This document shows, in pieces, positions 12,901-15,900 of a stretch of 34,239 bases of DNA (the first letter of the stretch is position 1; every line of letters begins with the position of its first letter). The stretch comes from a virus (Duplodnaviria; Heunggongvirae; Uroviricota; Caudoviricetes), in IMG/VR virus record IMGVR_UViG_2663762996_000010, positions 1-34,239 of that record; one strand, given 5' to 3'. The position numbers were made by a program.

Positions 12901-15900
12901 ACGAGTTCAACAACCTGCCCTTTAATTTTTTCCCGCTCTTCTTGTGTAAAAACTTTTGCCACAAGCCCTCCTGAAAATTACCTCATGACCAGAAATTAAC
13001 ACTTACCCCCTGAAGCCCGGCGGAATTTCGTTATCCGGTTCAGAAATATGATTCACACAACGCTGGTTGTTCGTGCCGCTTACCGGGAGCAACCAGGGGT
13101 TCTCAAAATTCCGGTCCGGTCCAAAAAACGTCGTCGCTCGCTGAACAAATTCCGTTCCCGTTTTCCCGGTAGCCGCCAAGTATCTTGCGTAACGCCTCAC
13201 GCCATCCAGCATGGCCTCTGGTGGCACCCCCTCGCGTAATCTGGCCTTCCAGGCACTGAAAGCGGATTTCTTCGGGTTTGCTCCGGCACGCAACGGGTAC
13301 TCCCGCCAGACCTGTTCGAACGCATCCGGATAATCCACTCGTCCCACAGACAGCCCGGTGTTTTCCGGGACTACCCGATCGGCTTTCCGCTGAATGGCGG
13401 AATCGGCTTCAGGCTGCTGCAGTTGGTGTGATTGCTCCGGCCTTGGGGTCATCACCTGCTGCACAGCGCCCGAATCGGCTTTCAGCGCATACGCTGAATC
13501 GGCTTCCGGTGTCGTGCCTGCTGGCTGACCAGGATTGACGGTCTGAACATCCCCTGCCTGGTTCGTGGCGTTTTTTACGCCATGGACCATAGTGTTTTGA
13601 TCTTCTTGATCTGTATCTTTATCTGTATCTTTATCTGTCGTGACTCGTCGTGACATGTGCGTGACATTTCGTGACGCGCCGTGACAATCGCCATTTTGTT
13701 CCCGCTTTCTTTCCCTCTCTCGCTGCGCCCTCTTGCGCTCTGCAGGAGATTTTGCGGTTTGCGAAATATTGCCGTTGTCCTCTTTAAGCACCTGGCGTTT
13801 TTCCCATCCAGTGATTAAATCACCATCAAGTACCCGCCCCTGCATCGTCTGCAAAATTGAATCAATTACCTCTTCTGTCACGTCGAGCGCACTTGCCAAA
13901 TCTTCTGTCGTGACATCAATGTGACCTCGCGTGACATTTCGTGACGCGCTCACCAGGAGGTGGATATACACTGCCATCACTGTTGCAATTGGCTGCCCTG
14001 ACACCCTGGCAATTGTTCGCCACTTAGGGTCATTTGGCATGTCATGCCATAATCTGAGCCAGGCGTTAGCCATACTCACCTCTTCTGATACCGAATCTTT
14101 TTACTCACGAGTTGCCGGAAGCGATTCGATATGGCTATTGTCAGTCAATGTACTGCCACAGCATTTCCTGCCGGGCCACCACGATTCATCTGATTGAAAC
14201 CGGCGATTGCCACTGCGACAAAATCATCAGCGTCTCTCACCAGTCGCTCCCGCGTCTCCACCAGCTCCCGAAAATAAGCTGAACTGTGGCTGCGCATTCT
14301 GGCCACCAGCAAAGGTGGCATTGCCTTTTCGATCGCTGGTAACAACGCCTGAATTTTTTCAACTGCATCAGGGGTGTCTTTCTCTACCCAGCGGAAAATT
14401 TTCTGGGTATTACGGGCCAGGGCTTCCGGATGGCTGTCGTCATACAGTTCCGGGAACGTCATTCCCAGCTCGAAATACGCTTTGGTAATTTTCGCAGCCG
14501 GTACTTTTTCGCCGTCCGGATGCGCCCAGACATTCATCGCCATGCGGATGTGTTCATGCTTGATTTTCATGAATCATTCTTTCCTTCGTTTGAGGTGCTA
14601 TCCTGCTTCTTGTAAAGTTCTGGGTTGTATTTCAATTCACTGTTAGTAATTTCATCCAGTTCCATTGCGCGAAGTTTGGGAATAACTGCTTTCCACCGCA
14701 CAACAGCCACATGTGAAATTCCAAGAGCCTCAGCTACTAGTCGCTTTTTTTTGAAATAGCGCAGAACATCATCTTTGAACATAAAACTCTCCTGTTATTT
14801 CGAGCAGAAGGGTAACAATAGTTACATAACAATGTCAACCATAGCAACATCACTTGGTAGTAACATTGGTTACATGAAAAACACTATCAGCGAACGTATT
14901 CGGAATCGTCGAAAAGACGTTGGATTAACCCAACAGCAGGTTGCGAAAGCAATCGGCATATCTCGTGTATCCGTAACAAAATGGGAAAATGGCTCTTCAA
15001 AACCTGACGGTGAGAATTTGTATCTACTGTCAAAATTGCTTTCCAAATCTCCTGAATGGATTCTTTATGGAAAGGACGGTCACGATAAAGCCGATGATCT
15101 GCGTCTGAATCAGTACCCTTACATTAGTGACAACATCGCCCGGTTGCCCGTTTTAACGTGGGAACAGGCTGGTTATTGGGATATGAGTTGTCCAGTAACC
15201 GAGATTCCTGGTATTAAGAATTGGGTTGATGTCATGACAAAAACCGCTGAAAACTCTTTTTTATTGCATGTTGAGGGAGATGCGATGACAAACTCTAACG
15301 GCCTCCCAACCATCCCCAACGGATCTACCGTGCTGATCACACCATGCTCAAGTAACATTAGAGAACTGGTGGGAAAAATAATCTTAATCCAATTGGAAGG
15401 AACGCCAAACGTAACACTAAAAAAAGTTGCGATTGACGGACCAAACATCTATCTGTTGTCACTGAATCCGCTTTACAAACCCATCGAACTGAATGGTGGT
15501 TACACCATTAAAGGTAAAGTTTCACAAATACATCAATACTTAGACTGAGTCAGAACCCGCATTCATTGCGGGTTTTTTATGCCCTCAAATGTACCTTTTG
15601 CAACATTGTATTGACTCGAAAGGTAACTCTTGTTACCTTAACAACATACCAACCCACCCCGCCCCACAGAATGCAGGGCAATACTTCGAGTTACCTGGCA
15701 GTGGTCAGGGGTTAAATAGCCAGCCCGAGGCGTAAGAACATGACGGCAGGGTTCAACTTTAATAACTATGCAGCAGGTTTTTGTTCCGCTACCCCGGCGT
15801 TAAGGGGAAATGAGGTCAGCATGGATACTATCGATCTTGGCAACAGCGAATCTCTGGTATGTGGCGTGTTCCCCAACCAGGACGGTACGTTCACCGCGAT

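Follow-up and report, generated by a model that had tools for sequence, protein, structure and literature searches.

The window analysed here is a 34,239-nt sequence of a virus of the Caudoviricetes (IMG/VR record IMGVR_UViG_2663762996_000010, positions 1-34,239), the term standing for this whole stretch. Its minus strand carries, at 13003-14079, an open reading frame (ORF) of 358 amino acids (aa) that matches the family phrog_3729, 'replication initiation protein', from end to end (E = 4e-255), and 98%-identical proteins are labelled 'phage replisome organizer' at NCBI. The family comprises more than 1500 homologous proteins and is found in more than 580 viral contigs, from prophages of E. 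coli and Shigella to phages of Pseudomonas, Bordetella and Aeromonas. Two arrays of a six-base repeat, named A and B below, and a purine-rich A+T tract all lie within this ORF. A first, sequence-only reading of the DNA had already placed the repeats inside a replication initiator gene, in agreement with the phrog_3729 match. The features of the gene are as follows, in gene direction:

13003-14079, minus strand: replication initiator gene, 358 aa from the GTG at 14079 (assigned from the ORF list, the phrog_3729 match and the gene context)
13795-14073, minus strand: codes for the N-terminal domain (aa 3-95), which is presumed to bind DNA and predicted to be helical and winged-helix-like
13909-13945, minus strand: array A, three GTCACG and one GTCACA at 10/10/11 bp, coding for aa 45-57 (ASRNVTRGHIDVT) in the loop after helix 31-47
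13877-13882, plus strand: single inverted hexamer, GTCACG on the plus strand, 32 nt downstream of array A in gene direction
13639-13685, minus strand: array B, proposed core iterons, five GTCACG spaced by 10/10/11/10 bp in gene direction and coding for aa 132-147 of the disordered linker
13595-13638, minus strand: purine-rich A+T tract, ACAGATAAAGATACAGATAAAGATACAGATCAAGAAGATCAAAACA on the gene strand, including a 12-bp tandem repeat, proposed DNA-unwinding element
13559-13589, no strand assigned: imperfect palindrome TGGTTCGTGGCGT/ACGCCATGGACCA with 13-nt arms and a 5-nt loop, just past the A+T tract, possible third origin element
13006-13341, minus strand: coding region of the C-terminal domain (aa 247-358), DnaT/DnaD-like, presumed helicase-recruiting module

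The GTG at 14079 is the mechanical start of the ORF (MSMANAW...). Because the homologues all begin with MAN(A/S/Q)W, the initiator probably starts at the ATG at 14073.

Array B consists of five copies of CGTGAC on the plus strand (GTCACG on the gene strand), which start at 13639, 13649, 13660, 13670 and 13680 and are thus spaced by 10, 11, 10 and 10 bp. In array A, CGTGAC starts at 13909, 13930 and 13940 and TGTGAC at 13920 (plus strand, spacing 11, 10 and 10 bp), and the two arrays are 260-270 bp apart, measured from start to start. These positions confirm what the sequence-only reading had described, namely five CGTGAC repeats with a phasing of 10-11 bp and, about 270 bp away, a cluster of four CGTGAC/TGTGAC repeats plus one inverted copy. 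It had also reported a 12-bp repeat next to the five-copy array and an overlap between repeats and array; the adjacency stands (13638/13639), but the repeat only abuts the array. Tandem Repeats Finder returned a 12-bp unit, TCTTTATCTGTA, in 2.9 copies at 13604-13638, and an array with a 10-bp period at 13637-13686. Counted on both strands of the window, CGTGAC occurs 30 times versus 15.3 +/- 3.7 times in dinucleotide shuffles, none of which reached 30. The five-copy run of array B is the sole run of at least three copies at 10-11 bp for any hexamer in the 34-kb window, and of 300 first-order Markov simulations 298 had a longest run of 2 for any hexamer and the other two a longest run of 3. The coding strand of array B reads tGTCACGgcgcGTCACGaaatGTCACGcacatGTCACGacgaGTCACG, and its hexamers are translated as CH, SR, VT, SR and VT.

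We compared the gene with its homologues at 44 loci of relatives, one genome per species, plus four obtained by exact protein look-up, using the invariant RLWHDMPND codons (the RLWHDM anchor) as position reference. Of 37 tabulated homologues, 21 have GTCACG as the commonest hexamer of the gene, and the GTCACG type numbers 25 genes in total. The sites of array A, at +110, +120, +130 and +141 from the anchor, are kept in about 20 divergent homologues, and array B is found at about +370 to +410. The same array positions occur in Escherichia, Aquitalea, Entomomonas, Serratia, Rahnella, Bordetella, Pseudomonas, Gilvimarinus, Acidovorax, Castellaniella and Chromobacterium, and are shared by beta- and gamma-proteobacterial homologues. 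In 23 non-redundant GTCACG-type genes we counted 177 hexamers of the form GTCAC[G/A]; of their 131 successive pairs, 120 are spaced by 10 bp (92) or 11 bp (28), and the hexamers start at codon positions 0, 1 and 2 in 73, 51 and 53 cases. The inverted copy is present at +173 in the window and in 12 of the 22 other non-redundant GTCACG-type homologues, with third positions 65-90% conserved, which is looser than in the direct copies.

Synonymous sites were analysed over the first 330 nt of 19 ungapped genes with a mean pairwise nucleotide identity of 0.69. At the four-fold third positions within the hexamers of array A the most frequent base reached 1.00 in GTC, ACG and GGT, 0.95 in TCA and 0.89 in GCG. 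Its mean frequency at four-fold sites was 0.98 in the array A hexamers (n = 7) versus 0.43 elsewhere (n = 10; Mann-Whitney p = 3e-4), in a group of 19 genes that had been selected for GTCACG at two of the four positions; free of that selection are only the other three four-fold sites (0.89, 0.95 and 1.00) and the VT and SR codon tallies. The sites of comparison were invariant P, T, V, A, G and R codons outside the hexamers, with top-base frequencies of 0.32-0.58, and the CGN codon between two hexamers is unconstrained (0.42). As for the tallies, taken over all GTCACG-type genes, VT in the array regions is written GTCACG in 75 of 111 cases and GTGACA, as in the inverted copy, in 19, and the four VT found in the rest of these genes are never written GTCACG. 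SR appears as TCACGN in 49 of 53 cases in the arrays versus 4 of 20 elsewhere. From these comparisons we hold it close to certain that the hexamers are selected DNA elements.

The sequence-only reading had also proposed to look for variation in repeat number among related initiator genes, and such variation is present. Array A of E. coli P0003 (locus L130) contains five exact GTCACG and one degenerate copy, GTCACA (three plus one in the window), and its array B six exact GTCACG and one degenerate copy, ATCACG (five in the window); E. albertii (L002) has an array A with a 21-bp insertion. Copy number over the family ranges from 2 to 6 in array A (mode 4) and from 3 to 6 in array B, in steps of 21 bp or 7 aa. 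The array form of Erwinia phyllosphaerae (L025) departs from the 10/11-bp rule, its hexamers at +141 to +162 and +393 to +432 partly overlapping at 5-bp spacing (GTCACGTCACGTCACGTGAC) and reaching 15 copies in both orientations. In a set of 48 near-identical viral-contig alleles, variable positions number 2 of 60 in the hexamers versus 87 of 1077 overall, a variation too scarce to inform.

In some lineages the hexamer itself is different, and this concerted change covers both arrays as well as the sequence of the loop. GTAACG is found in both arrays of L020, L023, L031, L033, L132 and L133, and it is the hexamer used by the enterobacterial lineages Pantoea and Enterobacter; CGAACG is found in both arrays of L028, L030 and L032 and, more weakly, of L040. 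In the GTAACG-type genes VT is encoded by GTAACG in 22 of 34 cases, a synonymous change that recurs at many sites. There are 8.95 hexamers per kb within the gene versus 0.34 per kb in flanks of +/-2.5 kb, and we found no hexamer clusters outside the initiator gene, either within +/-2.5 kb in 22 loci or elsewhere in the 34-kb window. The flanking genes vary from lineage to lineage, and the initiator is the only protein that always accompanies the arrays. Hexamer type co-varies with initiator lineage, with the caveat that array A itself codes for part of the initiator.

The second conserved element adjoins array B. The GC content of the gene is at its minimum, 35%, at 13580-13639, and in the window the A+T tract is the 'DKDTDKDTD' repeat. 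The sequence-only reading had noted DKDTD-encoding repeats, which are indeed present beside array B and are better read as an A+T unwinding element of the proposed origin than as a separate protein repeat. In the homologues the tract is 24-60 nt long, with 66-85% A+T and 75-89% purine on the coding strand. From the start of the last array B hexamer to the beginning of the located tracts (AGATAAAGATAAAGA-type, also AGATAAAGA-type) the distance is exactly 8 nt, and this junction holds also in lineages with other hexamers, where the tract could be located; the tract-finding heuristic misplaced it in a few genes (L009, L012 and L016, for example). Depending on the lineage the tract is translated in three frames, as DKDKD/DTDKD, as PQIREEDKK (IREEDKK) or as DRLDKRR (LDKRR), and because it is kept in three reading frames we take it to be a DNA-level element too.

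Read on the plus strand, antisense to the gene, the palindrome that follows the tract has the score of a terminator-like hairpin with the T-rich strand of the tract behind it. L131-L133 carry a related palindrome, GGTTCAtGGCG-N5-7-CGCCagTGAACC, which is also found in L129 (phage 75/02 Stx, which has a different N-domain), with a compensatory change of GGCGT/ACGCC to GGCGA/TCGCC. It overlaps the conserved peptide motif LVHGEKxA(S/T), and with six sequences the DNA and protein constraints are inseparable. A lambda-like palindrome did not stand out convincingly as a family-wide element, the best inverted-repeat score having a mean of 5.7 versus 4.7 elsewhere in the genes and ranking at the top in only about 8 of 35, with some noise from the misplaced tracts. 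A promoter and terminator scan gave counts not above those of shuffles, and the lone weak antisense promoter-like match that overlaps array B consists of the hexamers themselves. No DnaA boxes (<=1 mismatch) were found within 5 kb of the arrays, the nearest being at 8068 and 23773.

The AlphaFold2 (AF2) model of the initiator predicts helices at 3-16, 18-27, 31-47, 58-65 and 69-79, followed by a beta hairpin, with a predicted local distance difference test score (pLDDT) of 76-93 over aa 11-90. Array A codes for the end of helix 31-47 and the following loop (aa 45-57), in which homologues carry an extra 7 aa (21 bp), TCHGVSR for example. The residues encoded by array B and the A+T tract, aa 132-159, lie within a predicted disordered linker at aa 130-246 (pLDDT about 30). 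With the arrays in a loop and in a disordered linker, the DNA signals would therefore occupy the parts of the protein most tolerant of imposed sequence. A Pfam search of the 358-aa initiator returned zero families at E <= 0.01, Phage_rep_O included, and the name 'DNA replication protein O' in some phage records was given by position only; judged by these searches the initiator is not a lambda O homologue. The N-terminal replisome organizer model TIGR01714 reached 15.4 bits versus a cut-off of 49.8, and PHROG 'replisome organizer' families matched the initiator with E = 5.6e-6 and 2.2e-4. We dropped a claim of homology to two experimentally studied replisome organizers, SPP1 G38P and TP901-1 Rep, the N-domain profile giving hhalign probabilities of 0.2% and 0.6%, each against a single sequence. 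Since there is no profile similarity to G38P or TP901-1 Rep, we do not claim family membership, only a likeness of working.

The C-terminal half of the initiator matches phrog_1701, 'DnaD-like helicase loader', with E = 2e-62. Its last ~24 residues alone match the C-terminus of DnaT (NF002770, 19 bits versus a cut-off of 201), and a sequence search of the PDB returned the DnaT C-terminal tail (6aep/2ru8) only, with E of about 0.3-0.6. PF17948 (DnaT-like) is precomputed on relatives with the same C-terminal half, and the window protein is without a Pfam match. The tail itself (aa 335-358, 13003-13080; ISEPDNEIPPGFRG), with the motif SEPDxEIPPGFRG, has almost the same sequence as the C-terminus of the host DnaT, and it could be a short DnaT-mimicking motif that engages the primosome or helicase-loading machinery of the host.

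The gene is a mosaic. Phage 75/02 Stx and others share window positions 13003-13481 at ~82% identity, with an unrelated N-domain and no GTCACG arrays, and in such relatives the similarity is confined to the C-terminal half (104-582 of a query made of window 12900-14200). The C-terminal half being exchanged separately, the N-domain therefore moves as one unit with both arrays and the tract. Phased repeats of its own were looked for in phage 75/02 Stx (Eru4) and none were found, only a purine-rich tract and a palindrome. The mosaic junction with other initiator types lies near 13481, in a region (13400-13509) with three copies of GAATCGGCTTC(A/C)GG that code for PEADSA-type repeats in the disordered linker; these units are deleted in some homologues (P0002, P0004 and P0014) and present in phage 75/02 Stx (L129, 1873-1986). 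The helicase partners differ as well. In L131-L133, whose initiators are 45-60% identical, a DnaC-like (IstB/AAA+) gene overlaps the initiator stop codon, and in L031 a gene for a DnaB-family helicase directly follows the initiator.

Taking these results together, we think it likely that the arrays are iterons bound by the initiator and that, with the A+T tract, they form the replication origin of the prophage inside the initiator gene. In our best reading, array B and the tract are the origin, set in the inter-domain linker, and array A is auxiliary, set in the coding region of the DNA-binding domain. Through their N-terminal winged-helix-like domain, initiator monomers would occupy the five GTCACG of array B in head-to-tail order, each helical turn (10-11 bp) taking one monomer, and the resulting nucleoprotein array would strain and melt the abutting purine-rich A+T tract at 13595-13638. 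The DnaT/DnaD-like C-terminal domain would then bring in the replicative helicase, here the DnaB-DnaC of the host; in relatives this step may use a phage-encoded DnaC-like loader or DnaB-like helicase. Because the next gene is DUF977, the prophage seems to rely on the host DnaC and DnaB. Array A and the inverted copy, ~260 bp off, would give further sites, for looping or wrapping into a larger complex or for copy control. We infer binding by the initiator and origin firing and, likewise, the melting of the tract, the recruitment of the helicase and the role of array A.

The layout is that of lambda ori, as the sequence-only reading had suggested. The latter is 'located in the middle of' gene O and consists of iterons and an AT-rich tract, with four iterons in lambda and six in Stx phages, whose O is lengthened by 13 aa (PMC7466680). 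In both systems the origin would lie mid-gene between a DNA-binding N-terminal part and a recruiting C-terminal part, with direct repeats, bound by the initiator in lambda and presumably here, and an AT-rich tract on one side; a change in iteron number adds in-frame residues (13 aa in Stx phages, steps of 7 aa here), and the gene follows cro- and cII-like genes in what corresponds to the rightward early operon. Unlike lambda, the present protein has no Phage_rep_O match, the sites have a 6-bp asymmetric core per helical turn where those of lambda are 19 bp, a second array lies 260 bp upstream within the coding region of the DNA-binding domain, the C-terminal domain is DnaT/DnaD-like, and the prophage is without a P gene. 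The lambda iterons are dyad-symmetric and are bound by O dimers.

Bacillus phage SPP1 offers a second parallel, its oriL lying in gene 38 (G38P), where direct repeats are bound by the origin-binding protein and an AT-rich region is the unwinding element (PMC6316719). As here, the repeats are inside the phage's own initiator gene beside an AT-rich element, there are two repeat regions (oriL and oriR), and even the names agree, G38P being a replisome organizer and the present protein a 'phage replisome organizer' at NCBI. Unlike here, the SPP1 origins are ~13 kb apart, each with its AT-rich element, while our arrays are 260 bp apart in one gene with one tract, and the N-domain has no sequence similarity to G38P. 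The rep gene (ORF13) of lactococcal phage TP901-1 reportedly contains repeats needed for replication (Ostergaard et al. 2001 are said to have described them), and its record annotates rep as 'replication protein, experimental'. It would thus be another temperate-phage replication gene holding origin repeats, without N-domain similarity, in a Gram-positive host, and with repeats of other sequence and length. Theta plasmids (pSC101, F, P1, RK2, R6K) also have helically phased direct initiator sites by an A+T-rich region, co-variation of initiator and iterons, and extra clusters for control. Their iterons are about 17-22 bp long, spaced by ~22 bp and outside the rep gene, whereas here a 6-bp core with free spacers lies inside the gene, and DnaA boxes, usual there, are absent within 5 kb here (<=1 mismatch). 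An iteron origin of the plasmid type was therefore rejected on its 6-bp core, lack of near DnaA boxes and repeats inside the gene.

Several results weigh against the proposed origin or its reader, together with the selection of the 19-gene group given above. The conserved core covers only 6 bp per 10-11-bp period, far below the iterons of lambda (19 bp) or plasmids (about 20 bp). Foldseek of the AF2 model against the PDB gave winged-helix matches that were non-significant, the best (MarR/Rrf2/CRP) with E = 0.7, and Pfam Phage_rep_org_N (PF09681) scored 16.6 bits versus a cut-off of 23.3 (E = 0.008), in an alignment that spans 1-119 of 121 model positions; 7 of 28 homologues match this model at E < 1. 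No residues that determine specificity were identified outside the loop encoded by array A, and five homologues (L027, L029, L034, L036 and L042) have no clear phased hexamer. Beside the initiator in the window there is no helicase-loader gene, the next gene being DUF977 / Ren-like, and literature searches found no binding or origin-function experiments on this initiator family.

Against this background four other explanations have to be weighed. An improbable one is a regulatory role of the hexamers as sites for the initiator or for some other protein of the phage (autorepression, a roadblock in the early operon, or handcuffing), with the origin elsewhere. Plasmids have iteron clusters with purely regulatory roles, P1 incA and those of RK2 being examples, and array A would fit such a role, as it has no adjoining A+T tract and lies inside the coding region of a structured domain; a weak antisense promoter-like match does overlap array B, though such matches are at chance frequency. 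Array B, on the other hand, is joined family-wide at a fixed 8 nt to a strand-asymmetric A+T tract of 24-60 nt, which is the signature of an unwinding element and not of an operator, its position in the inter-domain linker matches lambda ori, and no further hexamer clusters accompany the arrays in the 22 loci or the window. A regulatory function is thus possible mainly for array A and disfavoured for array B.

We regard it as very unlikely that the arrays are sites of a host protein, such as a winged-helix response regulator of the OmpR/PhoB type, rather than of the phage initiator. These regulators bind direct repeats 10-11 bp apart and the half-site of the Pho box is TGTCA, so that the head-to-tail order with one site per helical turn resembles response-regulator boxes, and three of the five array B copies do read TGTCAC. 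The invariant GTCACG, however, includes a final CG foreign to the Pho box, the hexamers are restricted to the initiator gene, and hexamer type (GTAACG or CGAACG in both arrays) tracks the lineage of the initiator, not that of hosts with conserved regulators. No more credible is a slippage- or recombination-prone sequence kept for module exchange between initiator genes: copy number shifts in 21-bp steps and the gene is a mosaic whose relatives share only the C-terminal half, but the junction lies near 13480-13500, ~140 bp past array B and not at the arrays, and hot spots need no strict phasing, no fixed hexamer with free spacers and no fixed A+T junction. Finally, the refuting case named by the sequence-only reading, that the repeats are a mere by-product of a repetitive protein (SRNVT / VTTD / DKDTD) with no DNA function, can draw on the alike peptides at both places (SASRNVTRGHIDVTTED and GASRNVTHMSRRVTTDKD) and on a 21-bp double period equal to seven codons, but we give it next to no credence, refuted as it is by synonymous sites fixed in the hexamers and free in spacers and other invariant codons, by a 10/11-bp period that shifts the frame between successive hexamers (CH/SR/VT) and uses all three frames in the homologues, by the writing of VT in the arrays (GTCACG in 75 of 111) and in the sister lineage (GTAACG in 22 of 34), and by an A+T tract kept in three frames (DKDKD, IREEDKK and LDKRR).

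The neighbourhood of the gene is a lambdoid immunity and replication region, with these genes:

14775-15548, plus strand: cI-like repressor (HTH_3 and Peptidase_S24)
14567-14782, minus strand: P22-type Cro
14145-14570, minus strand: YdaT/cII-like gene, upstream neighbour of the initiator gene
12537-12962, minus strand: DUF977 / Ren-like gene ('LygF'), next gene after the initiator

Near-identical DNA is found in the Escherichia phages Tritos, Evi and 204576 and in several vB_Eco phages; the feature table of phage Tritos, the single record examined, has no annotated origin feature. Elsewhere in the window, the antisense small RNA DicF occurs in three identical copies (76.7 bits each) in one prophage region, at 16694-16745, 20356-20407 and 22240-22291. 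The isrK and C4 antisense RNA are found twice with identical scores, 1865 bp apart, at 18777-18965 and 20642-20830, and ORF pairs are doubled too (18861-19514/19508-20011 and 20726-21379/21373-21876), so that a ~1.87-kb segment, DicF included, looks tandemly duplicated. A full-length sok antitoxin RNA (111.7 bits) at 10726-10900 implies a toxin-antitoxin locus of the hok/sok type in the early region of the prophage. Three tRNA genes are clustered on the minus strand at 6839-7145, resembling the phage-borne tRNA sets of lambdoid and Stx-type prophages, and two more are at 26749-26835 (minus strand) and 27827-27899 (plus strand).

Searches for GTCACG/CGTGAC iterons, for origins in replisome organizer genes and for oriJ/ydaU returned nothing on this initiator family in the searchable literature, and its origin appears to be undescribed so far. 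The principle is known, origins within initiator genes being textbook for lambda and SPP1; distinctive here are the 6-bp iterons, one per turn, the second array in the coding sequence of the DNA-binding domain, and the clean dual coding across two proteobacterial classes. The position of array A also raises a self-referential prospect, to which we give a slim chance: initiator sites within the DNA-binding-domain loop (aa 45-57) could encode part of their own reader. That 7-aa insertions are tolerated in this loop argues against a precise role for it in recognition. If the loop does aid site recognition, a change of hexamer, from GTCACG to GTAACG or CGAACG, would alter site and reader together, and new origin specificities and replicon incompatibility groups could then arise in a single step.

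Lambdoid and Stx-type phages have "non-lambda" replication modules, among which this family falls, and a recent survey of the non-lambda replication regions of Stx phages reports that nothing is known on the replication proteins (PMC8951638). The arrays and tract give a concrete candidate origin for a widespread, unstudied initiator family, and prophage typing could use the hexamer (GTCACG, GTAACG or CGAACG) as a marker for replicon or incompatibility. The locus is also a clean natural case of dual coding, in which the DNA signal fixes synonymous sites and dictates VT, SR and CH in an otherwise free linker and loop, and methods for detecting overlapping constraints could usefully be benchmarked on it.

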